Positions 2,602 to 16,991 of a stretch of 31,903 bases of DNA are shown piece after piece. The stretch covers positions 1 to 31,903 of the forward strand of contig SLPR01000254.1 of assembly GCA_007131895.1 (NCBI GenBank). The letters are read 5' to 3'. The stretch is from Bacteroidales bacterium (GTDB lineage Bacteria > Bacteroidota > Bacteroidia > Bacteroidales > UBA7960). Below the pieces are notes generated by a model. That model saw nothing but the letters and a program-made list of their open reading frames with translations, had not been told where the DNA came from and searched no databases. Made by a program: the position numbers and the translations under genes. The stretch's first letter is position 1. The number at the start of each line of letters is the position of its first letter.

Positions 2602-3441
2602 TTATCTGGATGCATTTTTCTTAACTCCAATGCCGGCAGTAATACGGTCGAGAATAATGGCCAGGATGACTACCACAAGACCGGCTTCAAAACCTTGTCC
2701 TACCTGCAATCTCTGGATACCCCGCAATACATCTTCTCCCAGTCCTCCCGCTCCAATCATGGCAGCAATTACTACCATCGACAATCCCAGCATGATAGAC
2801 TGATTCACCCCTGCCAGGATGGTTGGTTTGGCCACGGGGATTTGCACCCTCATAAGTTTCTGAAATTCGGTGGCTCCAAAAGCATCTGCTGCTTCCACCA
2901 GTTCAACGGGTACTTGCCGTATGCCCAGGTTGGTCAGGCGGATAAGCGGAGGCAAGGCAAACACGAAAGTAGCTACGACTCCCGGCACCAGTCCCAATCC
3001 GAAAAACATTACCGCAGGTATGAGGTAAACAAATGCAGGCATGGTTTGCATAAAGTCGAGGATTGGGCGTAGAATGGCATTGAAGCGATCGCTGCGCGCA
3101 GCCCATATTCCTAAAGGTAGCCCCACAAGAATCACAATAATTTCTGCTGATAGTACCAGGGCGAGGGTTTCCACAAAGGCTTCCCATAAACCGATGTTTT
3201 CGCTCAACAACAGGCCAAGAAAGGCGATGATGCTGTTCTTCCAGCCTGCCATATACCAGGTTATGCCTGTAATGATGAGTATTAGCACAATGGGAGGGAG
3301 AAAAAGCATCCCCTCTTTGAGGTTATCAACCAGAAAATAGATGAATGCACTGAAACCGTCAAAAACTGGTCCCAGCTCCCTCTCCAGGTATTCAACTGCA
3401 GTGGTAACCCAGTCTCTTAATGGAATTCTATAAGGAAACAT
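2602..3441 (-). CDS. proW: Glycine betaine/proline betaine ABC transporter permease (ProW/OpuAB)
   Basis: RPILDFMQTMPAFVYLIP and EAA loop (ELVEAADAFGAT..QKL..VQIP), QSIMLGLSMVVIAAMIGAGGLG. Confidence 0.95.
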   Translation of the reverse strand: MFPYRIPLRDWVTTAVEYLERELGPVFDGFSAFIYFLVDNLKEGMLFLPPIVLILIITGITWYMAGWKNSIIAFLGLLLSENIGLWEAFVETLALVLSAEIIVILVGLPLGIWAARSDRFNAILRPILDFMQTMPAFVYLIPAVMFFGLGLVPGVVATFVFALPPLIRLTNLGIRQVPVELVEAADAFGATEFQKLMRVQIPVAKPTILAGVNQSIMLGLSMVVIAAMIGAGGLGEDVLRGIQRLQVGQGFEAGLVVVILAIILDRITAGIGVKKNASR

Positions 3442-3563
3442 AATGTTGAAAATTTAAAGTTTTATAGTAATGGGGACATTTTACTGTGCCGGAAAGGCTG
3501 TGTGATGATTAAAAAGCTATAGCCAGTGATTTTTTATGTTCCGGGTTTAGAAAGTGTTGGTTT

Positions 3564-4790
3564 TTATGTTTTTCCGTTTTCTCCGGGAATATATGATTCT
3601 GAAAGTGCTGCTATTACAGCTCCTTTTACAATTACCCCTTTGACTTTATTTTGTTTGTCAACCACTGCAATGGGGCCGAATTCATGGTCGGTGTACATAT
3701 TGATGATCTCGTTAAGAGGAGTATTTTCTTCTACGCTGGCGGGTTCATGCAGCAGTCCTTCATTCATTGGAATATTTTCAGCGTCTTTGTTTTTATTGAT
3801 ATAGTCTGCAAGCTCAGAGGCCCTTATGTAGGCTTTGAGCTCTTTGCGGGTGTTGGTCATAAGGATGCCGGTGAGGCCCTTTTTACGGATTTTGCGCAGG
3901 ATGGTCCTTGGTCCATCCCCCTCAAAAGCGGTATCTTCAACAGGTTGCATTACCGATGCAGCAGTGAATATGGCAGATCTGTCCATATCGACTACAAAAG
4001 CTTTTACATAGTCATTGGCCGGCCGGGAGATGATTTCTTCGGCTGTGCCGATCTGTACGATTCCCCCGTCATCCATGATTGCGATTCGGTTACCCAGCCG
4101 AAAGGCTTCATCCAGATCATGAGTAACAAAAATGATGGTTTTTTGCATACGATCCTGGATTTCCAGCAATTCGTCCTGCATTTGCCTGCGAATGATGGGA
4201 TCCAGCGCACTGAAGGCTTCATCCATCAGCAGGATATCAGCATCTACTGCCAGCCCGCGAGCCAGGCCTACCCTTTGCTGCATACCACCAGAAAGTTCAT
4301 CAGGATAGCTGTTCTCGTGCCCTTCCAATCCTACCAGTTTGATCACCTCTATCGCTTTTTTGGCTCTCGTTGGCTTGTCTACTGATTGAAGTTCCAGCCC
4401 AAACTCAACATTTTCCTGCACGGTGAGATGGGGCAGGATAGCAAAGTTCTGAAATACCATCCCACAGAAATGCTTGCGGCGAAAATTGCGCAATTCTTTC
4501 TTGTTTAGTTTGGTGATGTCGGTTCCGTCGATAATAATTTCTCCCTGGCTGGGCTCGTGCAAGCGGTTGAGCAATCGCTGAAGAGTAGATTTGCCGCTTC
4601 CTGAAAGCCCCATAAGTACAAATATTTCGCTCTTTTTCACCGAAAAAGACACATCATATACACCCACCTTCTGATTCAATTCACGAAGGATGTCATTTTT
4701 CGATTTGCCTTTTTTGAGTTCCCCAATCGCTTTTTCGGGGTTTTTACCAAATATCTTTGATAGATTCTTTACTATTATTTTATCTTCCAT
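3564..4790 (-). CDS. proV: Glycine betaine ABC transporter ATP-binding subunit with C-terminal CBS pair (ProV/OpuAA)
   Basis: Walker A GLSGSGKST, signature LSGGMQQRV, Walker B LLMDEAFSALDP, C-terminal CBS-like domains. Confidence 0.95.
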   Translation of the reverse strand: MEDKIIVKNLSKIFGKNPEKAIGELKKGKSKNDILRELNQKVGVYDVSFSVKKSEIFVLMGLSGSGKSTLQRLLNRLHEPSQGEIIIDGTDITKLNKKELRNFRRKHFCGMVFQNFAILPHLTVQENVEFGLELQSVDKPTRAKKAIEVIKLVGLEGHENSYPDELSGGMQQRVGLARGLAVDADILLMDEAFSALDPIIRRQMQDELLEIQDRMQKTIIFVTHDLDEAFRLGNRIAIMDDGGIVQIGTAEEIISRPANDYVKAFVVDMDRSAIFTAASVMQPVEDTAFEGDGPRTILRKIRKKGLTGILMTNTRKELKAYIRASELADYINKNKDAENIPMNEGLLHEPASVEENTPLNEIINMYTDHEFGPIAVVDKQNKVKGVIVKGAVIAALSESYIPGENGKT

Positions 4791-4873
4791 GATTGGTTTT
4801 ATAGAGTACGGATTGTTACCGGTTGAAACTGCCGGTAAGGGGCAAAATGAAAATGCCTGTTGACTTTGGATAG

Positions 4874-4915
4874 AAACACTGCCGGAAAATTTGCCCCATT
4901 CCGGCAGTGTTTTTA
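4874..4915. terminator. Strong 14-bp hairpin between proX and proV (terminator or mRNA-stabilising stem)
   Basis: AAACACTGCCGGAA (4874-4887) / TTCCGGCAGTGTTT (4899-4912); long T-run on the + side, only a short U-run in the sense (minus) direction. Confidence 0.6.
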
Positions 4916-4954
4916 TTTTGTCAGGACGAACCTAAAGAGGCATCAGGCATGATT

Positions 4955-5818
4955 TTATTGCAGCCATGCATTCACTTTTTCAGGGTTTTCGGCTATCCAC
5001 TGCCTGGCAGCGTCCATGGGTTCCATATCATCTTCAATGAGCATCATCACTTCTGCCATGTCATCGGGGGTCCAGTAGAAATTGTCCAGAAATGCAAATA
5101 CTTCCGGGGCTTTTGTCTGGAGATTAGGATGCACAATGGTGGCAATGTGTTCTTCTTCGCCTAGTGATAATTTGGGATCCTCCAGGTATTTGAGGTCGAA
5201 GGCAGCAAACTTCCAGTGGGGTGTCCATCCGGTAACTACTATCCATTCTTCTCTCTCAATGGCGCGTTGCAAGGCAGCAGTCATTGCTGCATCAGAGCCG
5301 GAAACCAGGCGGAAATTGTCCAGTTCATAATCTTCCATTACTTTTTCACTGGCAGCCATAAGGCCTGCGCCCGGATCAATGCCTATGATTTGTTCGTTGA
5401 ATTCTTCTGCATATTCATTGAGCTCATCAATGCTGTTTACAGGCACATACGAAGGCACCACCCATCCCAGGCGGGCACCCTCAAGATTTGGCCCCAGGTT
5501 GATAATATCATCAGCGGTTTGGTCGAGGTAAGCTTCGTGGGTCGTAGGCAGCCAGGCAGCTACGATGGCATCAAAGTCACCCCTGGCAACACCCATCCAC
5601 ATGGGGCCTGCATCTACAGCAGTAAGGGATACTTCTTCACCTAGTCTGTCTTCAATCACTGCTGCTACCACGTGGGTTGAAGCAATTTCAGAGTCCCATA
5701 AAACATATCCCAGTTTAATTTTTTCTGTTCGGGGTTCGCACGAGCTTATCATAAATAATACTCCTACCAATGCAAAACCTTTCAGCAGGTTTGAAATCGT
5801 TTTTTTTGTCATCATCAT
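4955..5818 (-). CDS. proX: Glycine betaine ABC substrate-binding lipoprotein (ProX/OpuAC-like)
   Basis: Lipobox MISSC; Trp-prism motifs LWDSEIAST, AAWLPTTH, GWTPHW. Start moved from ORF-track 5884 to the ATG run at 5818-5810 so the signal peptide begins the protein. Confidence 0.92.
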   Translation of the reverse strand: MMMTKKTISNLLKGFALVGVLFMISSCEPRTEKIKLGYVLWDSEIASTHVVAAVIEDRLGEEVSLTAVDAGPMWMGVARGDFDAIVAAWLPTTHEAYLDQTADDIINLGPNLEGARLGWVVPSYVPVNSIDELNEYAEEFNEQIIGIDPGAGLMAASEKVMEDYELDNFRLVSGSDAAMTAALQRAIEREEWIVVTGWTPHWKFAAFDLKYLEDPKLSLGEEEHIATIVHPNLQTKAPEVFAFLDNFYWTPDDMAEVMMLIEDDMEPMDAARQWIAENPEKVNAWLQ

Positions 5819-5968
5819 AATTGGTTTTTGAGGTTTGTGATAAAAATTTGTTGGGTGAGGTTTTTCCTGGCCGCTGGTGTACATAGCGTATTACACTTGA
5901 GGCTTCAAGAAAGCCATTTATATCCCAATCAAAAGAATTGTGTTGAAAAATATTTTTAAAACCGGGAA

Positions 5969-7231
5969 TTAGAAATAATACCCGATATTTACATTGAAGC
6001 GCAGGTTCCAGTTTACATCTTCCAGCGGGAGCGGTTTTCCTTCAGCGTCCAGATGTCCTGCACCCAATCCGGTTCCGAAGTAATCCGTAAGCCAGGGATG
6101 GTTTTTACCCAGGGCAAAATCAACATAGGTATAAATGTTTCCTGCCGTAATCATAAATCCGGGCACAATCATGTAAGAATTCTGGAAATTAAAATCAGCA
6201 TCCCCGGGAATTAAACTTCCATCTTTGGTCATCATGGAATAATCAAAATAGGGGAGGATGTTGCTGATGGGCCCCCATTGCACCGGTATGCTATAGGCTA
6301 AACCCGCAGTGATGAGTGAACCTCTTGCCGCAACTCCGTCGCCATAATAAGGGTCGCCATAAGCACCCATTTGCACGCGATTGAGGGTATTGCCCTCGTC
6401 GTCACGCGCTTTATAGTCGTAAGATGTATATTGCAGTTTGAGGTTGAAGCCGGAGAAATCAGAGTTCAGATGTACGGCCCATGCATTGCCATAGTCTGTT
6501 TCCTGCAACACTGAGTTGTAAAGCCCTTTAATCTGACCGGAAAATCCCAGTTGTGTACCGTCGAAAATTTCGTAGGCCGCACGCAGGTTAAACTGGTTCA
6601 TCTCACGGATAGACGAGGTGGCTCCCGACTCCGATAGAACGCCGTCGGTGTCGGGTATCACATTGTAGGAATAAGTCCCCGCTCCGGGTCCTCCAAAGCT
6701 GGCGCTGCCATAAGCAGGCCCTGCAGGCTCTGCTTGCCTGAAATAAGCAAAGGAAATATCCAGCTTCTCTGAAGCAGCATAATTGAATTTGATCCCCATG
6801 TTATAGTCATCCTCCAGCCCTAAATAATAGGGCATGAGAAACCACCAGCTGTGGGAGTTGTAGGTAAGATTCCCAAAGGGAACCTGCGTGACCCCCAATT
6901 GCATTTCAAGGTCCTCGTTAAAGTTGTATCCCAGAAATCCATGGTGAATAAAATGGGTGTTGAAGGTGGGATAAAACCGGTACTCAAAATCGAGTACAAC
7001 ACCACTGTAGCGTGCTGCAACGTTAAGCCTCCAGGTGTCGAAAGTGGCATAAGTACTGGTGGGAGTACGGGCACTTTCATAATTCTGACTTACCACGTTG
7101 ATGCGGAATGCACCGCCAATTCTCAGATAATCTTCATCTTCTGTCTCCTGTGCAAAAGAGGGTAAAGAGATGAAGCTTACACAAAGAAGAATAAATAGTT
7201 TTGTCAACAAATTTTTCGTAAAGATTCTCAT
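5969..7231 (-). CDS. Uncharacterised outer-membrane beta-barrel (porin-like) protein
   Basis: Cleavable signal peptide (..LPSFA/QE), alternating aromatic beta-strand pattern, C-terminal beta-signal FNVNIGYYF; first gene of the proX-V-W run. Confidence 0.8.
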   Translation of the reverse strand: MRIFTKNLLTKLFILLCVSFISLPSFAQETEDEDYLRIGGAFRINVVSQNYESARTPTSTYATFDTWRLNVAARYSGVVLDFEYRFYPTFNTHFIHHGFLGYNFNEDLEMQLGVTQVPFGNLTYNSHSWWFLMPYYLGLEDDYNMGIKFNYAASEKLDISFAYFRQAEPAGPAYGSASFGGPGAGTYSYNVIPDTDGVLSESGATSSIREMNQFNLRAAYEIFDGTQLGFSGQIKGLYNSVLQETDYGNAWAVHLNSDFSGFNLKLQYTSYDYKARDDEGNTLNRVQMGAYGDPYYGDGVAARGSLITAGLAYSIPVQWGPISNILPYFDYSMMTKDGSLIPGDADFNFQNSYMIVPGFMITAGNIYTYVDFALGKNHPWLTDYFGTGLGAGHLDAEGKPLPLEDVNWNLRFNVNIGYYF

Positions 7232-7277
7232 AAATTTTAGGATTAATGAATACTATGAATAATTAAATGCTTGCGAA

Positions 7278-7285
7278 CAAACATA
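7278..7285 (-). promoter_or_regulatory. Proximal -7 element (TATGTTTG) for the porin-proXVW operon
   Basis: Exact TAnnTTTG on the minus strand, 46 nt upstream of ATG 7231. Confidence 0.45.
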
Positions 7286-7520
7286 CTATGAACTTACCTG
7301 GGAGGAAATTATGGTAATTGTAATTGCACAGCCGCGGCTGTCAGCTAGCAGGTTCTTGCAACTTTTATGGTTTGGTTTCATACATGCAGCAGGCATACAT
7401 GATGCATCTGATGTTTGTAAACAATAAAGATGTTGAAGAACTTTTACGAAGGCATGGCAGGTAGATGGTTCTCCGATAGTGAGGAGGTGAAAATCTGTAT
7501 TTTTCTGCCCGTTTGCAATG

Positions 7521-7528
7521 CAAATATA
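7521..7528 (-). promoter_or_regulatory. Distal -7 element (TATATTTG) pointing toward the porin operon
   Basis: Exact TAnnTTTG followed by CA on the minus strand. Confidence 0.5.
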
Positions 7529-7584
7529 AACATGTAAGGTTATATAGCACAATAAAACCGGTTTTTTTTTTGTAATCGTTTTTG

Positions 7585-7592
7585 TACATTTG
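7585..7592 (+). promoter_or_regulatory. -7 element (TACATTTG) for the BCCT-USP-SBP operon
   Basis: Exact TAnnTTTG, 67 nt upstream of ATG 7660, divergent from 7521-7528. Confidence 0.55.
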
Positions 7593-7659
7593 TCTGAAAA
7601 ACTATAAAAATTAAGAGCTTATAGTGATTTTTTATGGATAATATTTTATTATTTACAAT

Positions 7660-9276
7660 ATGAAAGATGCGAAGGAAAAAAAAGGAGCAGTGGCACCTAA
7701 AAAGAACAAGTACTTTGAAATAGATCCCTGGGTTTTCTGGCCCTCGTCTGTTTTGATCGTGTTTTTTATTGCTGTCACTCTGCTGGTGGGTGAGCCTATG
7801 GAGCGGGTTTTTGCCAGTATTCAGAACAATATTTCAGAGTTTGGAGGCTGGTTTTTCGTGTTGGCCGTAAATATTTTTCTGATTTTTTCTCTCTCCATTG
7901 CCTTCAGCAAGTTTGGGAATATCCGGCTGGGAGGACGAACGGCCAAGCCGGAGTTTAAAAAGATATCGTGGTTTGCCATGTTGTTCAGTGCCGGTATGGG
8001 AATCGGGATTTTATTCTGGAGTGTGGGTGAGCCGGTATTGCATTATGTCAATCCTCCTGCAGGGCCGGGAGAAACCGTCGAAGCTGCCCGCAAGTCCATG
8101 CAATTCACCTTTTTACACTGGGGTTTGCATGCATGGGGCATTTATGCTTTGGTGGGAATGTCGCTGGCTTTTTTTACTTTCAATAAGAAACTCCCGCTAA
8201 CTATCAGTTCGGTTTTTCATCCTCTAATCGGCGATGGGATTCACGGCAAACTGGGTAAATCCATCAACGTATTGGCTGTAGTAGCCACACTCTTTGGTTT
8301 GGCCACATCACTGGGAATGGGAGTACAGCAGGTAAGTGCCGGTCTGAACCATTTGCTGGGTTGGCCCGACAATACCAATATGCAGGTTATTCTTATTGGT
8401 GTTATAACCCTGGCAGCTACCGGCTCAGTGGTGGCAGGGCTGAGCCATGGGGTAAAACGTTTGAGTCAGCTCAACATAATTATCGGAGCTTTTTTCTTGT
8501 TGTTTATGCTCATTGTGGGGCCTTCCCTGTTTATCTTCAGCTCGTTTGTGCAAAATATAGGAGGGTATCTGCAAAACTTTTTTGAGTTGAGTTTCTGGAC
8601 AGAAACCTATACCCAGTCTGACTGGCAAAAAAGCTGGACTGTTTTTTACTGGGCCTGGTGGATCAGCTGGTCTCCTTTTGTGGGGATGTTTATTGCCCGT
8701 ATTTCGCGCGGTCGCACCATTCGTGAGTTTATTCTTGGGGTGTTGATTGTACCCACCATTCTTACCTTTTTGTGGTTGTCGGCCTTTGGGGGTTCGGCAC
8801 TTTTCCTGGAGCTTAATGGACTGGCCAATATAACGGATGCGGTGCAAAATAATGTGGCCACTTCACTCTTTGTTTTGCTGGACCAGTTTCCCATTGGTGC
8901 CTTTACTTCTGTTGTTGGAATTATCCTGGTGACCAGCTTCTTTATTACCTCTTCCGATTCCGGGTCGCTGGTGATTGACAGCCTCACAGCAGGAGGGAAG
9001 CTGGATGCTCCTGTTACGCAGAGAGTGTTCTGGGCCCTTACAGAAGGGGGTGTTGCTGCAGTACTGCTCATTGGTGGAGGACTGGGGGCTTTGCAAACAG
9101 CCGCGATCACTACCGGCCTGCCATTTACCATTATTTTGCTATTAATGGCATACAGCCTCACCAAAGGTCTTTCGCAGGAGCATTACAAACTGATGAGGTA
9201 CGACTTGGAGAAGGAGCGGAAATCTTACCTGGATATCGTAACCGATGTTGTATCTAAAAGAGAAAAAAAATCCTAA
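7660..9276 (+). CDS. BCCT-family transporter, Na+-coupled glycine betaine type (OpuD/BetP-like)
   Basis: LFSAGMGIG (Gly, not the Asp of H+-coupled choline carrier BetT), HWGLHAW, WTVFYWAWWISWSPFVG aromatic box, FFITSSDS Na2-site motif. Confidence 0.93.
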   Translation: MKDAKEKKGAVAPKKNKYFEIDPWVFWPSSVLIVFFIAVTLLVGEPMERVFASIQNNISEFGGWFFVLAVNIFLIFSLSIAFSKFGNIRLGGRTAKPEFKKISWFAMLFSAGMGIGILFWSVGEPVLHYVNPPAGPGETVEAARKSMQFTFLHWGLHAWGIYALVGMSLAFFTFNKKLPLTISSVFHPLIGDGIHGKLGKSINVLAVVATLFGLATSLGMGVQQVSAGLNHLLGWPDNTNMQVILIGVITLAATGSVVAGLSHGVKRLSQLNIIIGAFFLLFMLIVGPSLFIFSSFVQNIGGYLQNFFELSFWTETYTQSDWQKSWTVFYWAWWISWSPFVGMFIARISRGRTIREFILGVLIVPTILTFLWLSAFGGSALFLELNGLANITDAVQNNVATSLFVLLDQFPIGAFTSVVGIILVTSFFITSSDSGSLVIDSLTAGGKLDAPVTQRVFWALTEGGVAAVLLIGGGLGALQTAAITTGLPFTIILLLMAYSLTKGLSQEHYKLMRYDLEKERKSYLDIVTDVVSKREKKS

Positions 9277-9288
9277 AACGATAATGTT

Positions 9289-10206
9289 ATGTTTAAACTT
9301 GATAAATTACTGATATGCCTTGATCTCACCGAAATGGATGAGTCATTGATTAGGTATGCCAATTTTATGGTGGAAACCTTCAGCCCCTCTTCTGTAACCT
9401 TTATTCATGTGATGGATACTTACGAAATACCGGAAGAAATAATAGGTACCATAACGGATAGTGACAGGCCTCTGAAAGATTTGCTGAAAGAGGAGATAGA
9501 GGAAAAAGTGCAGGAGCATTATCAACACGCAGACAAATTAAAGCCCACCGTAGTAATGGAAGAAGGGCTTACTGTGGAGAAAATTGTAAAGTACGCTCAG
9601 AAAAACAAAACAGACCTGGCCGTGATGGGCAAAAAGGTTGGATATATTGGTGAGGGAGGAGTGGTGAAGAAGATTATTGGTTTGATTCCATCATCGGTTT
9701 TACTCATCAGTGAAACATCTGCCTATCGGTTCACCAGGATTATGGTACGCACAAATTTTGCCAGTCCTTCTGTAGTGGCATTCCAGATGGCCAAATTCCT
9801 CCAGAATGTAACCGGAGCAAGTGTTGAATTTCACAATGTGTACAAACTTCCCTACAATTACTTCCCCGAACAAACAGCACAGGCAGCACAAAAACTAAAA
9901 GCACGATTGGAGCCCTATATGACAAAAAAGTATGAGAAATTTGTCGCAAAATACAAGTTGCCAACTGATATCCCTTTCAACTACACGGTAGATGTTAAAG
10001 GGGATGAAGCCCAGTCGTTGTATAATTATGCGGTAAGAAACCAGGTAGATCTGGTTATCACGGGTACGCGCCTCAAATCGCAACTGGCCAATATTATCAT
10101 GGACAGTACTTCAGAAAAACTGGCCGGGGTTGAAAAGAATATTCCTGTTTTGATTGTAAAAGATGTGAAAGAATTTGTAGGCTTTTTCAAAGCATTATTC
10201 GAATAG
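9289..10206 (+). CDS. Universal stress protein with two USP domains
   Basis: KLLICLDLT...FIHV...DLAVMG and RIMVRTNF...DLVITG...STSEKL...IPVLIV; 12 bp after BCCT. Confidence 0.88.
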   Translation: MFKLDKLLICLDLTEMDESLIRYANFMVETFSPSSVTFIHVMDTYEIPEEIIGTITDSDRPLKDLLKEEIEEKVQEHYQHADKLKPTVVMEEGLTVEKIVKYAQKNKTDLAVMGKKVGYIGEGGVVKKIIGLIPSSVLLISETSAYRFTRIMVRTNFASPSVVAFQMAKFLQNVTGASVEFHNVYKLPYNYFPEQTAQAAQKLKARLEPYMTKKYEKFVAKYKLPTDIPFNYTVDVKGDEAQSLYNYAVRNQVDLVITGTRLKSQLANIIMDSTSEKLAGVEKNIPVLIVKDVKEFVGFFKALFE

Positions 10207-10221
10207 TAAAAAGATACGTAT

Positions 10222-11097
10222 ATGAAAAGTAGTATGGTTAAATTACTGGTGTTTACGCTGTTGCTGGGAAGTTGTGTTTCTCCTTCCGACCGCGCCGTAA
10301 GTGAACAACGAGAGATAAAAATGCTTTATACCGACTGGTCGGAAAGCATAGCCATGACCTACCTCGCCTCCGTTTTGCTGGAAAGGGATATGGGGTTTAA
10401 GGTAACCACCCGCATGACAGATGTAGACGATATATTCAATACTATTGCTTCCGGCGAGGCGGATGTATTTCTGGATGTTTGGTTGCCTGCCACCCATAGT
10501 GAGTATATTGACCTTTATGGCGACAGAATCGAGCTATTAGGGTTGAATTATGAACCCGCACGTACCGGCCTGGTTGTTCCGGATTATATGGGTGTTGATA
10601 ATATAGAGCAACTCAGGGAGTATTATCAGGGTCCAATTGTGGGCATAGACACTACCGCCGGCATTATGCGCGTGACCCGTGAAGCTCTTGATGTGTACAA
10701 TCTTCCCAATGAGCTGCTGGGATTGTCGGAAGAGCAGATGACCGAAAGGTTGCGCACCGCAGTGCAACGCCAGGAAGATATCGTAATCACAGGATGGGAG
10801 CCCCATTGGATTTTCTTCCGGTATGATCTGCGGTTTCTGGAGGATCCGCAAATGATTTACATGGCTGAGGAGCAGATATACAGCATCGCCCGAACCGGCT
10901 TTGCTGAAGAGTTTGTCCATGTAATCACCTTCCTCAATAGAATGGTGCTGACCGAACGACAAATGAAGTCACTGCTTTTTGAAATGCACCTAAGTCCCGA
11001 TCCGCTGGAGGGGGTGAAAAGATGGATTCAAAGCAACGAGTTTGTGGTCAACCAATGGACCCGGGGACTGGGACCTGAAAGGGAAAAGATTATGTAA
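10222..11097 (+). CDS. Second glycine betaine-type substrate-binding lipoprotein (OpuAC-like), not next to ABC genes
   Basis: Lipobox LLGSC; YTDWSES, DVWLPATH, GWEPHW Trp motifs; 15 bp after the USP gene. Confidence 0.9.
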   Translation: MKSSMVKLLVFTLLLGSCVSPSDRAVSEQREIKMLYTDWSESIAMTYLASVLLERDMGFKVTTRMTDVDDIFNTIASGEADVFLDVWLPATHSEYIDLYGDRIELLGLNYEPARTGLVVPDYMGVDNIEQLREYYQGPIVGIDTTAGIMRVTREALDVYNLPNELLGLSEEQMTERLRTAVQRQEDIVITGWEPHWIFFRYDLRFLEDPQMIYMAEEQIYSIARTGFAEEFVHVITFLNRMVLTERQMKSLLFEMHLSPDPLEGVKRWIQSNEFVVNQWTRGLGPEREKIM

Positions 11098-11191: not shown

Positions 11192-11238
11192 AAAATAAAA
11201 GCAGGTACAACCCATTTCGTTGTAACTGCTTTTATTTT
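11192..11238. terminator. Bidirectional intrinsic terminator between convergent SBP2 and ATPase 1
   Basis: AAAATAAAAGCAG.TACAAC / GTTGTA.CTGCTTTTATTTT with A- and T-tracts on either side. Confidence 0.75.
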
Positions 11239-11305: not shown

Positions 11306-13990
11306 TTAATTCCCTTTGATTTTAAGGACAATAAACTTCTCCAGTTCTACCACTATAAAAACCAGCAGACCTGCGGCTAAAGGATAAAGCCAATAGCTTG
11401 CATCAATTGCTGCTGAATCAAAAGTCCTGTTCATAAAGGGAACATAAACAAACAAAAGCTGGAAACCAATGAGAACACCCACAGCTATAAATGCTTTAAT
11501 ATTGCTAAAGAATCCTTTACCGATAGTGGGGTTTTTGATTTTTCTGCAGTTGAAAAGGTAGAATAACTGGCCGGCTACCAGGGTGTTAACAGCAATGGTC
11601 TGAGCGATTTCTATACTTACATCGAGAGATTGCATGTATCTGAATATACCCATGGTCATGCCAGCAATAAGAAGAGAAACAAAAACGATTCGCCAGATGA
11701 ATAATTTGCCAAGGATAGGCTCGTCTGCTTTGCGTGGGGGGCGCTCCATCACTGTCTCTTCCATGGGCTCAAAAGATAGAGCCAGCCCGAGGGTAACCGC
11801 TGTCACCATATTTATCCATAATATCTGAGCCGGTGCAATGGGCATAGTGATGCCCAGCAATATAGCCACCATTAGCACCAGGGATTCAGCACCATTGGTG
11901 GGCAGGAGAAATAAGATGGTTTTTCGGATATTGTCGTAAACGGTTCTTCCTTCTTCAATGGCGTTTACGATAGAAGCAAAGTTATCATCGGCCAGTACCA
12001 TTTCCGATGCATCTTTACTGACTTCCGATCCCTTTATTCCCATTGCGATTCCGATATTGGCTTTTTTCAATGCCGGGGCATCATTTACACCATCACCGGT
12101 CATGGCAGTAAGTTTGTCGTTGGCTTGAAGAGCAGTAACAAGACGAAGTTTGTGCTCGGGGCTCGTGCGCGCATATACATCGTATTCTTTGCCTATCTGC
12201 TGCATTTTTTCGTCGCTCATCTCCTCCAGCTCTTTGCCGGTCATGACCTTTTCGCCATCTCCAATGCCTATTTCTTTGCCTATGGCTTTAGCCGTTATGG
12301 CATGATCTCCGGTAATCATCTTCACTTCCACCCCGGCTTCTTTACATTCTTTTACAGCATCTATCACTTCCTGTCGCGGGGGATCGATAATTCCTATTAC
12401 ACCCAGAAATACCTGGTTTTTTTCCACTTCCTCTTTTTCCAACTCAGAGCGGTTTTTATCTGCCTTTCGAAAGGCTGCTGCCAGCATTCTTTGTCCATCG
12501 GCTGCTACCTCTTCCATTTTCTCTTCCCAGAAATCTTTGTCGATGTCCTGTTCTTCCCCTCCGGCATATTGTTTATCGCACATCTCAAGCAATCTTTCTG
12601 GAGCTCCGGTCATAAATATGAAAACTTCATCTTCTACTTTGTTGAGTGTAGCCATGTATTTGTGCTCAGATTCAAATGGAATCTGATCGATACGCTCAGG
12701 TTTAAAATCTTTTAAACCAGCCTTGTAGCTCAGGGTGAGGAGAGCTCCTTCGGTTGGAGTGCCGCTAAGTTTCCATTCATCGTCTTCCTCCTTGTTTATT
12801 TCAGCATTGTTACAGGTTCGGATGGCTTGCAGCAATTTCAGCAGTACCTTATCCTCTTTGGGATCAATCTCTTCGTCATCCATGAGAATTTTTCCTTCCG
12901 GTTCATAACCTGACCCTTCCACCTTATATTGCTTCTCAGCTGTCACAATGGTTTTGGCAGTCATCTCGTTGCGTGTGAGGGTGCCGGTTTTATCAGAACA
13001 GATCACATTTACTGCCCCTAAGGTTTCAACCGAGGGTAAGCGGCGAATAATGGCATTTCGCTTTGCCATGCGCTGCACTCCAATGGCCAGGGTAATGGTC
13101 ATAATGGCTGGCAAGCCTGAGGGGATTGCAGCTACAATCAGAGCAATGGCTGCCATAAAAAGTTCAGTGATATCATATTCTACAACAAAGTAACCATAAG
13201 CAAAAAATGCTGCGGTAATTCCAAGAATTACCAATGATAACCATTTGCCAAACTTGTCAATTTTCTGTAGCAAAGGGGTGGTGATGTCTTCTACCTCTGA
13301 AATCATCTTATTGATTTTGCCGATTTCAGAATCAGATCCTATTGCTACGACAACCCCTGTGGCCTTGCCATATGTTACTATTGTACCCGAAAAGGCCATT
13401 GAGGATTGATCTCCTATAATGGCATCTTCTTCTGCCGGTTCCGTTGATTTCTTAACTGCTGTGGACTCTCCCGTAAGCGGAGACTCTTCCACCTGGAAGT
13501 CTTTGGATTTGAATAAACGGATGTCTGCCGGTATTTTATCCCCTGATTTTAAAACCACCACATCTCCCGGAACAAGGTCTTCGGCGTCAATCGTTTTTTT
13601 CTCTCCATCTCTCAATACTTCTGCTTCAAGAGAAAGCATTTCCCGGATGTCTTCCAGTGCCTTTTCCGCTTTGCCTTCCTGGATAAAGCCAATCACAGCA
13701 TTGATGATGACTACTGCAAGGATTATCCACATGTCGGTATAGTGTTCGATCAAAGCCGTGATGATAGCTGCTGCAAGGAGCAAATAGATGAGTACATTCT
13801 GAAACTGCATCAACAGGCGCTTCCACCAGGGCCGCTTTTTCCCTTTGGGCAGCTCGTTTTTGCCATATTTCTCCTGCCGTTTTCCAACTTCTTCTTTGTT
13901 AAGGCCCTCATCTTTGCTGGTGTTGAATTCTTTCACCACCTCTTCTGCTTCCATGGAATGCCATTTGGTCTTCTTGTTGTCTTTCGCCAT
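11306..13990 (-). CDS. Cation-transporting P-type ATPase (type II, CtpF/Pma1-like), copy 1, atypical PSGL in M4
   Basis: TGES, DKTGTLT, KMITGD, TGDGVNDAPAL intact; M5 PTNGAE, M6 QILWINMVTA; M4 reads AIPSGLP. Confidence 0.95.
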   Translation of the reverse strand: MAKDNKKTKWHSMEAEEVVKEFNTSKDEGLNKEEVGKRQEKYGKNELPKGKKRPWWKRLLMQFQNVLIYLLLAAAIITALIEHYTDMWIILAVVIINAVIGFIQEGKAEKALEDIREMLSLEAEVLRDGEKKTIDAEDLVPGDVVVLKSGDKIPADIRLFKSKDFQVEESPLTGESTAVKKSTEPAEEDAIIGDQSSMAFSGTIVTYGKATGVVVAIGSDSEIGKINKMISEVEDITTPLLQKIDKFGKWLSLVILGITAAFFAYGYFVVEYDITELFMAAIALIVAAIPSGLPAIMTITLAIGVQRMAKRNAIIRRLPSVETLGAVNVICSDKTGTLTRNEMTAKTIVTAEKQYKVEGSGYEPEGKILMDDEEIDPKEDKVLLKLLQAIRTCNNAEINKEEDDEWKLSGTPTEGALLTLSYKAGLKDFKPERIDQIPFESEHKYMATLNKVEDEVFIFMTGAPERLLEMCDKQYAGGEEQDIDKDFWEEKMEEVAADGQRMLAAAFRKADKNRSELEKEEVEKNQVFLGVIGIIDPPRQEVIDAVKECKEAGVEVKMITGDHAITAKAIGKEIGIGDGEKVMTGKELEEMSDEKMQQIGKEYDVYARTSPEHKLRLVTALQANDKLTAMTGDGVNDAPALKKANIGIAMGIKGSEVSKDASEMVLADDNFASIVNAIEEGRTVYDNIRKTILFLLPTNGAESLVLMVAILLGITMPIAPAQILWINMVTAVTLGLALSFEPMEETVMERPPRKADEPILGKLFIWRIVFVSLLIAGMTMGIFRYMQSLDVSIEIAQTIAVNTLVAGQLFYLFNCRKIKNPTIGKGFFSNIKAFIAVGVLIGFQLLFVYVPFMNRTFDSAAIDASYWLYPLAAGLLVFIVVELEKFIVLKIKGN

Positions 13991-14093
13991 ACAAATGATA
14001 TTTTTAAGGTTTTCAGTAAATAGAGGTAAAATGCTAATTTAAGTAAATTAATGCTTTACTGAGCAATGAAATTTGTTGTTTTTGTTTATTTCA

Positions 14094-14101
14094 CAAAGAT
14101 A
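14094..14101 (-). promoter_or_regulatory. -7 element (TATCTTTG) for ATPase copy 1
   Basis: Exact TAnnTTTG on the minus strand, about 100 nt upstream of ATG 13990 and just after the copy-2 terminator. Confidence 0.55.
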
Positions 14102-14110
14102 AGAAGTCCT

Positions 14111-14142
14111 AAAAAAAGGGGCATGACAGCTGGTCATACCCC
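14111..14142 (-). terminator. Intrinsic terminator after ATPase copy 2
   Basis: Minus strand GGGGTATGAC-CAGCT-GTCATGCCCC then T7. A second 11-bp hairpin lies at 14205-14231. Confidence 0.7.
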
Positions 14143-14294
14143 CACATTTGTATTTTTATTCATCCAGGTAACCCTGCCCTTTGAATACTATCTATCGTTG
14201 AAAGAAGCTATTTCTTTTCAAGAAATAGCTTTATTGTGTTGACTTTCCGTAATTCTTATATAAGTCAAACTTTCAAACGAGAATATAGAAAATA

Positions 14295-16991
14295 TTAGCT
14301 TGCGTACCCTTTAATTTTAAGAATGATAAATTTCTCCAGTTCTACCACGATAAATACCACTAAGCCGGCGGCCAGAGGGTAGAGCCAATATCCTGCTTCA
14401 ATGGCTTCTGTTCCGAAAAGCGTATTCATAAATGGGACATACACAAAAAGCAGTTGCAGAACTATCAGCCCTGCAGCCGCAATAAAAGCGTATTTATTGG
14501 CGAAGAATCCTTTGCCTATACTGAGTTCTTTTATTTTGCGGCAATTGAACAGATAAAACAATTGTCCTGCCACTAACGTGTTCACTGCAACCGTGCGTGC
14601 AAATTCCACACTTACATCCAGCGATTGCATGTATTTAAACATGGCCAGGGTCATGCCTCCAATAAGAACAGATACAAAAGCAATGCGCCAGATAAAAATT
14701 TTGCCCAGGATGGATTCTCCCGGTTTTCGTGGAGGTAGCGTCATTACCTTATCTTCCATGGGTTCAAAGGACAGGGCCAGCGCCAGGGTAACGGCTGTCA
14801 CCATGTTTACCCATAGAATCTGTGCAGGGGTAATGGGCATGATGATACCAAGCAAAATGGCCGACATCAGCACCAGGGCTTCTGCGCCATTGGTGGGGAG
14901 GATAAACAGAAGTGCTTTGCGGATATTGTCGTAAACGGTACGACCTTCCTCAATGGCATTTACAATGGAGGCGAAATTATCATCGGCCAGCACCATTTCG
15001 GAAGCATCCTTGGTTACTTCGGTACCTTTGATGCCCATGGCAATGCCGATATTGGCTTTCTTCAGTGCCGGAGCATCATTTACTCCGTCGCCGGTCATGG
15101 CTGCAAGCTTTCCGTTTTCCTGCAGTGCTGTAACCAATCTTAGTTTGTGCTCGGGGCTGGTACGTGCATAAATGTCGTATTCGCTGACAATTTTACGCAT
15201 TTCTTCGTCGCTCATCTCTTCCAGTTCCTTGCCGGTCATGGCTTTCTCTCCATCGCCAATGCCCAGCTCCTTGCCAATAGCTTTGGCGGTAATAGCATGG
15301 TCGCCGGTAATCATTTTCACTTCTACACCGGCTTCCTTGCATTCCTTGATGGCTTCCACCACTTCGCTGCGGGGTGGGTCAATGATGCCTATTATACCCA
15401 GGAAGGTTTTGCTTTTTTCCAGGTATTCTTTATCTATTTCGGTGCGGCTGCTGTCGGTTTTTTTAAAAGCAGCGCCCAGCATGCGTTGTCCGCCTGCCGC
15501 CACTTCTTCCATTTTTTTCTCCCAGTATGCCTTGTCCAGATCTGCTTCTCCTTCGGCAGTATATTGCTTGTTGCACATATCCATAACCCTCTCCGGTGCA
15601 CCTGTCATGAATACGTACACTTCATCTTCCACCTTGTTGAGGGTGGCCATGTACTTATGGTCGGATTCAAAGGGGATATTGTCAATACGTTCGGGTTTGA
15701 AATCCTTTAATCCTGCTTTATAGCTCAGGGTAAGCAAGGCCCCTTCGGTGGGTGTGCCGCTGAGCTTCCATATGCCATCTTCTCCCTCACTGATTTCCGA
15801 GTTGTTGCTCGTGCGGATGGTTTGCAGCAATTGATAAAGTACTTTGTCTTCTTTGACGTCAACTTCTTTGTCGTCCAGAAGAATTTTCCCTTCCGGTTCG
15901 TAACCTGTTCCTTCCACCTTGTATTGCTTTTCTGCTGTAACGATGGTTTTGGCGGTCATTTCGTTGCGTGTAAGGGTACCTGTTTTGTCCGAACAGATTA
16001 CATTTACTGCACCTAATGTTTCTACCGAGGGCAAACGACGAATGATAGCATTTCGGGCTGCCATACGCTGCACTCCCATGGCCAGGGTGATGGTCATAAT
16101 AGCCGGCAACCCCTCAGGAATGGAGGCCACTATCAGCCCGATTGCTGCAAGGAAAAGTTCGTTTAGCTCATAATCTCCAAAGAAATAACCATAAGCGAAA
16201 AATGCTGAGGTAACTGCAAGGATTATTACGGATAACCATTTTCCGAATTTTTCTATTTGTTGCAGCAGAGGAGTGGTTATTTTCTCTACTTCAGAAATCA
16301 TCGTGTTGATTTTTCCCAGCTCTGTATCACTGCCAGTAGCCACAACTACACCTGTTGCTTTGCCATAGGTAACTGCCGTGCCCGAAAAAGCCATTGAAAG
16401 CTGATCGCCAATGGTGGCATCCGCACTAACGGCATCAGCCGATTTTTCCACAGCAGTGGATTCACCCGTCAGGGGAGATTCCTCCACCCGCAAATCCTTG
16501 GATTTGAAGAGTCGGATGTCGGCAGGTATTTTGTCTCCCGATTTCAAGAAGACAATATCTCCGGGAACCAATTCCTCGGCTTCGATGGTTGCTTTCTCTC
16601 CATCCCTGATTACCACTGCTTCAAGAGAGAGCATATTGCGAATCCCTTCCAGTGCTTTTTCGGCTTTTCCTTCCTGGATAAAGCCAATGAGCGCATTGAT
16701 GATTACAACGGCCAGAATTACCCAGGTATCAACCCAGTGATCCATCAGGGCTGTTATCACCGCTGCGGCCATCAGCACATATATCAATACATTGTGAAAC
16801 TGGAGCATCAATCGAACTAACCAGCTTTGCTTCTTTCCTTTGGGCAGCTCGTTTCTGCCATGTTCCTCCAGCCTCTTGCTCACTTCATCCTTGTTCAGAC
16901 CCTCAGATTCACGGGTGTCGAACGCTTTTATCACCTCTTCTGCTTCAATGGAATGCCAGCGGGCTTTCTTTTTTTCCTTTTCTTCTGCCAT
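14295..16991 (-). CDS. Cation-transporting P-type ATPase (type II, CtpF/Pma1-like), copy 2, canonical PEGL
   Basis: TGES, SIPEGLP, DKTGTLT, TGDGVNDAPAL; collinear and highly similar to copy 1 along its length. Confidence 0.95.
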   Translation of the reverse strand: MAEEKEKKKARWHSIEAEEVIKAFDTRESEGLNKDEVSKRLEEHGRNELPKGKKQSWLVRLMLQFHNVLIYVLMAAAVITALMDHWVDTWVILAVVIINALIGFIQEGKAEKALEGIRNMLSLEAVVIRDGEKATIEAEELVPGDIVFLKSGDKIPADIRLFKSKDLRVEESPLTGESTAVEKSADAVSADATIGDQLSMAFSGTAVTYGKATGVVVATGSDTELGKINTMISEVEKITTPLLQQIEKFGKWLSVIILAVTSAFFAYGYFFGDYELNELFLAAIGLIVASIPEGLPAIMTITLAMGVQRMAARNAIIRRLPSVETLGAVNVICSDKTGTLTRNEMTAKTIVTAEKQYKVEGTGYEPEGKILLDDKEVDVKEDKVLYQLLQTIRTSNNSEISEGEDGIWKLSGTPTEGALLTLSYKAGLKDFKPERIDNIPFESDHKYMATLNKVEDEVYVFMTGAPERVMDMCNKQYTAEGEADLDKAYWEKKMEEVAAGGQRMLGAAFKKTDSSRTEIDKEYLEKSKTFLGIIGIIDPPRSEVVEAIKECKEAGVEVKMITGDHAITAKAIGKELGIGDGEKAMTGKELEEMSDEEMRKIVSEYDIYARTSPEHKLRLVTALQENGKLAAMTGDGVNDAPALKKANIGIAMGIKGTEVTKDASEMVLADDNFASIVNAIEEGRTVYDNIRKALLFILPTNGAEALVLMSAILLGIIMPITPAQILWVNMVTAVTLALALSFEPMEDKVMTLPPRKPGESILGKIFIWRIAFVSVLIGGMTLAMFKYMQSLDVSVEFARTVAVNTLVAGQLFYLFNCRKIKELSIGKGFFANKYAFIAAAGLIVLQLLFVYVPFMNTLFGTEAIEAGYWLYPLAAGLVVFIVVELEKFIILKIKGYAS

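Follow-up and report, generated by a model that had tools for sequence, protein, structure and literature searches.

Can a BCCT carrier, one of a family of LeuT-fold, rocking-bundle transporters treated as single-component systems, work with a binding protein? The question is raised by a soda-lake Bacteroidales genome (GCA_007131895.1; 83% complete) in which a BCCT gene is followed by genes for a USP and for an OpuAC-type lipoprotein, here called SBP2. We analyzed contig SLPR01000254.1, a window of 31,903 nucleotides, starting from a sequence-only reading that had proposed a binding-protein-assisted, USP-regulated betaine carrier. Overall, the operon of that reading proved real and widely conserved, with SBP2 tracking the BCCT-USP pair, but its betaine-carrier label is an assumption.

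The operon and its neighbors

The genes for the BCCT-family Na+-coupled carrier (7660..9276, + strand; 538 aa; Pfam BCCT, 638 bits), the tandem, cytoplasmic USP (9289..10206, +; 305 aa) and SBP2 (10222..11097, +; 291 aa; Pfam OpuAC, 175.6 bits) are separated by gaps of 12 and 15 bp and followed by a single strong hairpin at 11192..11238 (dG -20.6 kcal/mol, z -6.8; equalled by none of 200 shuffles), so that open reading frames and folding bear out the spacing and the terminator first described. An A run lies 5' of this hairpin and a T run 3' of it, making it a bidirectional intrinsic terminator usable by both the operon and the convergent P-type ATPase gene. The three genes form one operon, a module for osmolyte or methylamine uptake.

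Upstream, a divergent intergenic region of 428 bp (7232..7659) is, as read from its sequence, presumably a common promoter and regulatory region for the BCCT gene and the gene of a porin-like outer-membrane barrel (5969..7231, - strand; 420 aa, without a Pfam family); no Rfam family was matched across the whole window, this region included. Beyond the porin lies an SBP1-ProV-ProW ABC cassette (2602..5884, -), comprising the OpuAC lipoprotein SBP1 (4955-5884, -; Pfam OpuAC), ProV (3564-4790, -; ABC_tran+CBS) and ProW (2602-3441, -; BPD_transp_1). The ABC operon thus has its own binding protein, as had been noted. In 13 of 29 orthologous loci the gene immediately 5' of the BCCT gene, and on its strand, encodes a porin; Mariniphaga-type genomes have the order porin-BCCT-USP-SBP2, and Flavobacteriia-type orthologues also show the arrangement porin-BCCT-USP.

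The carrier and its USP

The carrier matches PF02028 over all 485 positions of the model, scoring 638.2 bits where the curated cut-off is 27, and its residues 16-536 align without gaps to TmaT of Myroides profundi D25 (PDB 8ZW8; E 1.1e-176, about 60% identity over 521 residues). The GxGxG motif found in TM3 of Na+-coupled members is present (A-G-M-G-I-G at 111-116), with the Met of TmaT, and the WWxxW aromatic box (W333, W334, W337) is identical to that of TmaT. All seven residues of the TmaT trimethylamine site (M105, W146, W151, Y154, W325, W326, W329) are matched by identical ones (M113, W154, W159, Y162, W333, W334, W337). The carrier is therefore a TmaT orthologue of the same BCCT subfamily, a LeuT-fold inner-membrane carrier of the TmaT type with predicted Na+ coupling.

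Since TmaT has been reported to be trimethylamine-specific and not to bind glycine betaine (PMC11708041, PMC7997507), to call its orthologue a betaine carrier is an unproven assumption. By the TmaT paper's own account, most of the site residues are common to betaine carriers. TmaT works with the monooxygenase Tmm. Here, no FMO-like (Tmm) match was found in the window's genome (83% complete), and 20 related genomes gave weak partial matches only, with no convincing FMO-type gene; the TmaT-Tmm pathway was therefore rejected as context. Our guess at the substrate slightly favors glycine betaine or a close quaternary amine, trimethylamine being a good deal less likely and any other compound a little less likely again.

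In the USP, the alpha/beta domain of Pfam Usp (PF00582; 71.9 bits) was found in two stretches. The single sequence had no match in the PDB; a profile of 24 orthologues was required, and it matched MJ0577 (1MJH), the tandem USP 3LOQ and TeaD (3HGM; E 1.7e-6). Alignment with MJ0577 agreed with the earlier remark that, in each domain, the motif G-2x-G-9x-G(S/T) of ATP-binding USPs (the MJ0577/UspFG/TeaD class) has degenerated. In domain 1 the first and third motif glycines remain, the second has gone with a four-residue deletion, and there is an invariant loop peculiar to the domain (G114-x-K116...G121-x-G123); domain 2 reads G-T-R-L...M-D-S against G-S-H-G...L-G-S in MJ0577, with Leu and Asp replacing the second and third Gly. 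Residues D12, L13, D17, H40, G114, K116, G121 and G123 are invariant among orthologues, some distant ones of which retain the canonical motif in domain 2.

Of 29 orthologous loci from across the phylum, 24 have the USP gene after the BCCT gene. The tandem USP is the predicted cytoplasmic partner of the carrier, with which it is co-inherited throughout the phylum. TeaD, of the TeaABC ectoine TRAP system of Halomonas elongata, is a fair precedent: its gene too lies directly after one for an osmolyte-type transporter. TeaD differs in being a single-domain protein, whereas both domains of the present USP lack the motif.

Most sampled Bacteroidota with orthologous BCCT-USP pairs have no OpuAC gene at all (about 23 OpuAC-free genomes were sampled), so the carrier generally needs no binding protein. 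The BCCT-USP pair, often with a porin before it, is the older module, to which SBP2 is an added accessory.

SBP2 and its independence from ProVW

SBP2 has a lipobox (LLGSC, Cys18) and matches L. lactis OpuA at E 8.6e-47; in alignment with L. lactis OpuAC, its W39, W87 and W192 correspond to W330, W377 and W484, and its G147-I148 to G437-V438. These five residues are invariant in 20 of 20 orthologues. The OpuAC-like lipoprotein with all three Trp-prism residues is thereby confirmed, and SBP2 is a lipid-anchored, predicted periplasmic receptor whose trimethylammonium (Trp-prism) pocket is intact. Fold, prism and backbone contacts are those of the OpuA/ProU importers (L. lactis OpuAC 3L6G, 7AHC; B. 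subtilis OpuAC 2B4L), and Gram-positive OpuAC proteins share its lipid anchor. H392 of L. lactis OpuAC is named in PMC2861598; position 392 of the 7AHC chain is Ser in our alignment, and in SBP2 H195 is invariant and H92 nearly so. The linkers after the lipobox Cys of SBP2 proteins are acidic and gave no clear match to the Bacteroidota surface-export motif.

Unlike the OpuA/ProU receptors, SBP2 belongs to a separate clade and ends in a conserved 11-residue tail (residues 281-291, R-G-L-G-P-E-R-E-K-I-M; 11062..11094, +). The C-terminal pattern W-x-[KR]-x-L-x3-R-x-K-[IV]-M occurs in nearly all 53 clade members and in none of 59 ABC-linked homologues, from which the tail-bearing proteins stand apart with an SH-aLRT support of 92 (71 once tail and leader columns are removed). 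The AlphaFold2 model has a mean pLDDT of 88.8, about 95 across residues 30-280, and falls from 67 to 42 along the tail, which is predicted to be disordered. A recent duplication of SBP1 was rejected as the origin of SBP2, the two being 34-35% identical and in different clades. One search of longer proteins for a BCCT-OpuAC fusion found none, only a permease-OpuAC fusion, which is weak evidence.

A search of 61 relatives with the USP gave 18 informative loci, and in all 18 the order and strand of BCCT-USP-SBP2 were the same. With SBP2 as query in a GTDB-wide scan, the order was found at 44 of 80 loci, in 44 species-level genomes (most genomes compared are MAGs), and it persisted while identity fell to 23% for the USP and 39% for SBP2. 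Conserved linkage of binding-protein and carrier genes is also a feature of binding-protein-dependent secondary transporters (TRAP, TTT, TAXI-GltS). The proposed order is thus widely conserved, genomes without proVW included. SBP2 is fixed as the third gene throughout the Bacteroidales/Marinilabiliales clade, and a BCCT-USP pair is present in every tested genome with a tail-bearing SBP2.

Nor does SBP2 depend on the ABC pump. Draconibacterium, Sunxiuqinia and Saccharicrinis have exactly two OpuAC genes per genome, one adjoining ProW and the other in a distant BCCT operon. No ProW homologue is present in nine operon-bearing genomes, each of which has just one OpuAC gene; in three congeners among them, SBP1-ProV-ProW is precisely absent at this position on contiguous contigs. 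A hidden ProW in genome G411 was rejected, its two weak permease matches being PstC/PstA of phosphate ABC systems. The dN/dS of SBP2 is 0.08-0.12, including pairs in which both genomes are ProVW-less, indicating purifying selection. Because these nine genomes keep an intact, selected SBP2, the idea that it occurs only with proVW fails. Binding proteins of ABC importers are encoded with a cognate ProW/OpuAB-type permease and an ATPase; SBP2 is encoded with neither and persists in genomes that have neither. SBP2 belongs to a distinct OpuAC subfamily, one that has parted from the ABC system. As this subfamily tracks the carrier and not the ABC pump, it is a candidate binding protein for the BCCT carrier.

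What SBP2 may do for the carrier

The reading we favor, at somewhat short of an even chance, is that the operon encodes an uptake module in which SBP2 would feed the TmaT-type carrier and the USP would tune it, a coupling inferred from the genes. SBP2 would capture solute entering via the neighboring porin and hand it to the carrier, or concentrate it there, raising apparent affinity as the binding proteins of TRAP, TTT and TAXI-GltS systems do. Its conserved, disordered, basic tail would be the docking element, and the USP, whose canonical ATP motif is gone, would act from the cytoplasmic face via another ligand or state. More tentatively, this may be the first binding-protein-assisted LeuT-fold (BCCT) transporter, in which a tail-docked SBP2, the porin and the USP would complete a four-layer, envelope-spanning route.

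Some observations speak against delivery from SBP2 to the carrier. The SBP2 pocket is of the betaine type and TmaT is reported not to bind betaine (PMC11708041), so the substrates might differ; and LeuT-fold carriers do not use the elevator mechanism, the only one with which binding proteins have so far been associated. There are also the OpuAC-free genomes, in which the carrier works alone, and those in which SBP2 lies apart from BCCT-USP. Carriers with SBP2 also differ from others at 16 clade-specific positions, only four of them in presumed periplasmic loops (the topology comes from a hydropathy reading, and phylogeny confounds the comparison), and the same comparison found no insertions or indels.

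This lack of periplasmic adaptation would also suit a tethered periplasmic sink or porin-linked receptor, which would retain solute that arrives via the porin or leaks out of the cell and benefit the carrier indirectly, with no docking at the inner membrane. The porin gene accompanies the module and remains beside the trio where SBP1-ProV-ProW is missing, the carrier functions in most lineages with no binding protein, and in Balneolales SBP2 is patchy and unlinked to BCCT-USP. However, a C-terminal peptide that is strictly conserved, yet disordered when alone, points to a specific partner protein. The fixed third-gene position over the whole Bacteroidales/Marinilabiliales clade and the fact that the porin also heads ABC operons with tail-less binding proteins likewise tell against a sink, and we consider it rather unlikely.

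SBP2 could instead be an alternative binding protein for ProVW, with a specificity or affinity unlike that of SBP1, and merely co-regulated with the BCCT operon. The default role of an OpuAC protein is that of an ABC receptor; ProVW lies only 2.8 kb from the operon in the window, divergently oriented; and about 85% of the SBP2-bearing genomes tested have ProW. Moreover, SBP2 lies apart from BCCT-USP in Gracilimonas, Balneolaceae and Marinilabiliaceae ANBcel2, all with ProW, and several SBP2-unlinked genomes have it 0.5-5.6 kb from a porin-ProVW operon (3.5-5.6 kb from the ABC operon in Gracilimonas; in ANBcel2, directly adjoining porin-SBP1-ProV-ProW, with BCCT-USP elsewhere). Against this stand the nine ProW-less genomes with an SBP2 under purifying selection, the separate clade with a tail seen in no ABC-linked homologue, and the persistence of SBP2 with BCCT-USP in genomes that have ProVW at another locus. 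Every ABC operon examined, besides, already has an adjacent binding protein. Service to ProVW is thus distinctly improbable.

Least probable of all is a ligand sensor that would switch the carrier or another membrane protein on or off, with the USP as its cytoplasmic equivalent: the conserved tail aside, a possible mismatch between the betaine-type pocket of SBP2 and the nearest characterized carrier, reported to be trimethylamine-specific, would fit regulation better than delivery, and binding proteins are known to feed signaling proteins (review PMC8050422). Genes for a sensor kinase, a chemoreceptor or a cyclase are, however, absent from beside the operon in the loci examined, and no BCCT is known to be gated by a binding protein.

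For the favored reading, delivery to the carrier, the nearest parallel is TAXI-GltS of Bordetella pertussis, for which recruitment of a binding protein to a non-TRAP secondary carrier was proposed from conserved gene linkage (PMC12344293). There as here, and as in TRAP and TTT systems, a binding-protein gene from another transporter's family is coupled to a usually solo secondary Na+ symporter; in both TAXI-GltS and our operon, moreover, the binding protein is a lipoprotein and the evidence is gene linkage. The present system differs in its OpuAC rather than TAXI fold and in the USP gene inserted between the carrier and binding-protein genes. Unlike TAXI-GltS, TRAP and TTT, its carrier is no elevator, the structures of TmaT, BetP and CaiT being LeuT-fold.

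Our literature searches found neither a BCCT described as paired with a binding protein nor one paired with a USP. TmaT was studied alone, with a USP, porin or binding-protein partner unmentioned in its two papers (PMC11708041, PMC7997507), and normally forms part of a porin-carrier-USP module; the operon raises the question of what the TmaT subfamily transports outside Myroides. OpuAC genes that adjoin BCCT genes do not warrant automatic annotation as ABC components. Before 2025, binding proteins for secondary carriers were known only from TRAP and TTT, TAXI-GltS being the third, and an elevator mechanism was proposed as possibly required for their use (PMC12344293). An SBP2 subfamily that tracks a BCCT in at least 44 species and survives without an ABC partner makes that proposal testable, and cultured hosts exist (Sunxiuqinia dokdonensis DH1, S. 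elliptica CGMCC 1.9156). If SBP2 does serve the carrier, the proposed elevator-only rule for binding-protein-using secondary carriers would be broken.

Operon structure and conservation

The BCCT carrier gene (7660-9276, + strand; 538 aa, Pfam BCCT 638 bits), the tandem USP gene (9289-10206, +; 305 aa, Pfam Usp in two stretches, 71.9 bits) and the gene for the binding lipoprotein SBP2 (10222-11097, +; 291 aa, Pfam OpuAC 175.6 bits) are spaced by 12 and 15 bp and followed by a hairpin at 11192-11238 (-20.6 kcal/mol, z -6.8). Both the tight spacing and the single terminator claimed in the sequence-only reading were thus recovered. An A run precedes the hairpin and a T run follows it, so it can terminate both convergent transcripts. 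The separate ABC operon with its own binding protein was also borne out on the - strand, where SBP1, the second OpuAC lipoprotein (4955-5884), lies beside ProV with a CBS domain (3564-4790) and ProW (2602-3441). A gene for a porin-like barrel (5969-7231, -; 420 aa, without a Pfam family) is divergent from the BCCT gene. We also observed that an MscS-type channel gene (1752-2567) and two paralogous P-type cation ATPase genes (11306-16991) border the uptake genes, giving the region the look of an osmoadaptation island. The genome is a MAG of 575 contigs, 83% complete, with one BCCT and two OpuAC genes.

Conservation of the BCCT-USP-SBP order across Bacteroidota, proposed earlier as a check, was assessed with two queries. 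The first, the USP rather than the binding protein, was run against 61 relatives, and the order held in all 18 loci with enough flank, including one whose USP is just 23% identical. These loci come from 13 of 21 congeners, from further genera within the family and from two families beyond it. A wider scan used the SBP2 alignment against one genome per GTDB species and returned 80 loci. The three genes stood in this order on one strand in 44 of them, among them Draconibacterium, Mariniphaga, Sunxiuqinia dokdonensis DH1, S. elliptica, Tangfeifania, Saccharicrinis, Marinilabilia, Salinivirga and many Bacteroidales MAGs. SBP2 was convergent to BCCT-USP in one locus, a tail-bearing SBP2 (with the C-terminal extension described below) had no adjoining carrier in five, and the other 30, from other phyla, were standard ProV-ProW-SBP operons whose binding proteins lack the tail. 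Several Mariniphaga-type genomes carry a porin gene 5' of the trio on the same strand. Separately, a single genome of the order (L067, G447:C458) has a second BCCT-USP copy at the contig end with a TGA within the USP frame, possibly a duplicate in decay or a misassembly.

Ligand pocket of SBP2 and substrate of the carrier

SBP2 has the lipobox L-L-G-S-C (Cys18), and among solved structures it is closest to the substrate-binding domain of L. lactis OpuA (7AHC, 3L6G; E about 1e-46). By alignment W39, W87 and W192 correspond to W330, W377 and W484 of L. lactis OpuAC, so the description of an OpuAC-like lipoprotein with all three Trp-prism residues stands. G147-I148 correspond to G437-V438, whose backbone contacts the betaine carboxylate. 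The Trp prism and G147-I148 are invariant in 20 aligned orthologues, down to 40% identity, and all 20 are lipoproteins. This is a betaine-type pocket. We note that H392 of L. lactis OpuAC has been named as contacting the carboxylate (PMC2861598). In our alignment the 7AHC chain has Ser at 392, whereas W330, W377, G437, V438 and W484 all fall at their published numbers. Most likely that paper misnumbers the residue or means a different His.

The solved structure nearest to the carrier is that of TmaT from Myroides profundi (8ZW8), with a gapless match at E 1.1e-176 and about 60% identity. TmaT is reported to carry trimethylamine in symport with Na+, and betaine, choline, carnitine, TMAO and dimethylamine reportedly do not bind to it (PMC11708041, PMC7997507). 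All the trimethylamine-site residues of TmaT are conserved in the window carrier; most of these residues are common to quaternary-amine carriers, according to the same work (PMC11708041, PMC7997507). The working partner of TmaT is the monooxygenase Tmm (PMC11708041, PMC7997507). A search for FMO-type genes in this genome (83% complete) and in 20 related ones gave no convincing candidate, which argues that the piezolyte pathway is not the context here. The ProVW, MscS and cation-pump neighbours point to osmoadaptation. From the SBP2 pocket and these neighbours we favour betaine or a close quaternary amine as the substrate, with trimethylamine a less probable alternative.

Independence of SBP2 from ProVW

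The sequence-only reading had considered that SBP2 might occur only with proVW, as an alternative binding protein of the ABC importer; this did not hold. Four genomes among the 61 relatives carry the operon with a single OpuAC gene and without a ProW homologue (G411, 98% complete; G426, 91%; G410, 88%; G401, 82%). Contiguous contigs in G411, G410 and G401 hold the window's neighbours but lack exactly the SBP1-ProV-ProW cassette: the S1/CvfB gene is at the site in 3/3, the MscS gene is matched in 2/3, and the porin gene is kept, divergent from BCCT-USP-SBP2. The wide scan added five operon genomes with one OpuAC gene (G478, G489, G490, G487 and G499), in which ProW gave no match at E 1e-3; G478 and G489 are 5.1 Mb Mariniphaga assemblies. 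As a positive control, the same query matched five other genomes at 50-54% identity. SBP2 is under purifying selection, with dN/dS of 0.115 and 0.108 in two comparisons between ProVW-less genomes and 0.081 between G411 and the window. When ProVW is encoded at another site of the chromosome, a dedicated binding protein is encoded next to it and SBP2 remains with the carrier. Taken together, the ProW-less genomes, the selection on SBP2 and its persistence beside the carrier show that SBP2 is independent of ProVW.

As a candidate for a hidden ProW in G411, the sole weak permease matches were to PstC/PstA of phosphate systems and were rejected. The SBP1-ProV-ProW cassette itself (2602-5884; also L068, L069 and L071) is a presence/absence polymorphism among congeners at one fixed site beside the porin gene. 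Ordered by USP identity to the window, cassette-bearing and cassette-less genomes interleave, which suggests repeated loss or gain. The window cassette runs porin-SBP-ProV-ProW, whereas the order typical of the phylum is porin-ProV-ProW-SBP; the odd order is shared with Marinilabiliaceae ANBcel2 at 66-80% identity.

SBP2 also differs from ProVW-linked proteins at its C-terminus. The window protein has the extension R-G-L-G-P-E-R-E-K-I-M at residues 281-291, identified in the 20-orthologue alignment, and across the clade the tail takes the form W-x-[KR]-x-L-x3-R-x-K-[IV]-M, ending the protein. C-termini were compared for all OpuAC homologues of about 100 loci: nearly all of the 53 SBP2-group proteins carry the tail, and it was missing in 59/59 binding proteins encoded beside ProV-ProW, which stop a few residues past the shared V-N-x-W motif. 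Tail-bearing proteins form one side of a single branch of the maximum-likelihood tree (SH-aLRT 92, or 71 once leader, linker and tail columns are dropped), and SBP1 falls on the other side. AlphaFold2 predicts an OpuAC-type body (pLDDT about 95 over residues 30-280) with the post-anchor linker and tail at low confidence (pLDDT 67 falling to 42). Conserved yet predicted to be disordered alone, the tail resembles a docking motif, and we infer that it may act as one.

Carrier, USP and possible coupling

For the carrier, 400 genomes drawn evenly from the phylum were searched. Orthologues at >=50% identity occurred in 29, with the tandem USP after the carrier in 24 of these loci and a porin gene directly before it in 13; about 23 of the carrier-bearing genomes wholly lack an OpuAC gene. 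These counts suggest that BCCT-USP, often with a porin, is the ancestral unit and that the carrier probably works alone in most lineages. The combination of porin, TmaT-type BCCT and tandem USP (window 5969-9276; L164, L170-L182, L186, L158) reaches Flavobacteriia-type genomes, and the published TmaT work (PMC11708041, PMC7997507) is silent on porin and USP neighbours.

All operon-type carriers fall within one clade of the carrier tree. In Balneolales, the presence of SBP2 is scattered among close relatives. SBP2 is monocistronic and apart from BCCT-USP in Gracilimonas, a Balneolaceae MAG, G080 and Marinilabiliaceae ANBcel2. It adjoins porin-SBP1-ProV-ProW in ANBcel2 and lies 3.5-5.6 kb from an operon of this type in three Gracilimonas-type genomes. 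All tested genomes with an unlinked SBP2 hold both BCCT-USP and ProW, so they do not discriminate between the two partners. We looked for periplasmic adaptation of the SBP2-operon carriers and found no insertion and few specific changes in the presumed periplasmic loops; no BCCT-OpuAC fusion protein was found in one search of longer proteins. In a separate observation, operon-clade carriers share charge changes relative to other orthologues (R183S, D200K, D203N, D262S). A rough hydropathy topology puts all four at, or close to, the cytoplasmic ends of TM5 and TM6, and they may be connected with the USP instead of SBP2.

A profile of 24 USP orthologues matches MJ0577, the tandem USP 3LOQ and TeaD. 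The G-2x-G-9x-G(S/T) motif is degenerate in both domains, as had been read from the sequence: domain 2 has G-T-R-L-(9x)-D-S against G-S-H-G-(9x)-G-S in MJ0577, and domain 1 has lost its second Gly through a 4-residue deletion. Some distant orthologues (Flavobacteriia-type genomes, G272, ANBcel2) keep the canonical domain 2 motif. In domain 1, D12, L13, D17, H40, G114, K116, G121 and G123 are invariant, the last four lying in the loop G-K-K-x-G-Y-x-G-x-G (residues 114-123). Invariance across orthologues only 22-31% identical points to a conserved but non-canonical site, putatively for a ligand or an interaction.

The nearest structural relatives of the components are TmaT for the carrier, OpuAC for SBP2 and TeaD for the USP. 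In function the trio comes nearest to TAXI-GltS, which was put forward in 2025 from closely comparable evidence, strengthened there by rare fusions and by ligand binding. According to its authors, TRAP and TTT were the only earlier systems of this kind, and they suggest that elevator mechanisms are linked with them (PMC12344293). Our literature search found no description of a BCCT carrier with a binding protein, nor of a conserved BCCT-USP module. The genomic association of the trio is solid, and from it we infer how SBP2 would be coupled to the carrier. That SBP2 truly assists the carrier through direct contact is a serious possibility, which we hold tentatively and rate a little short of an even chance. 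Should the substrates of carrier and SBP2 prove mismatched, a role for SBP2 as a sink or sensor would be favoured.
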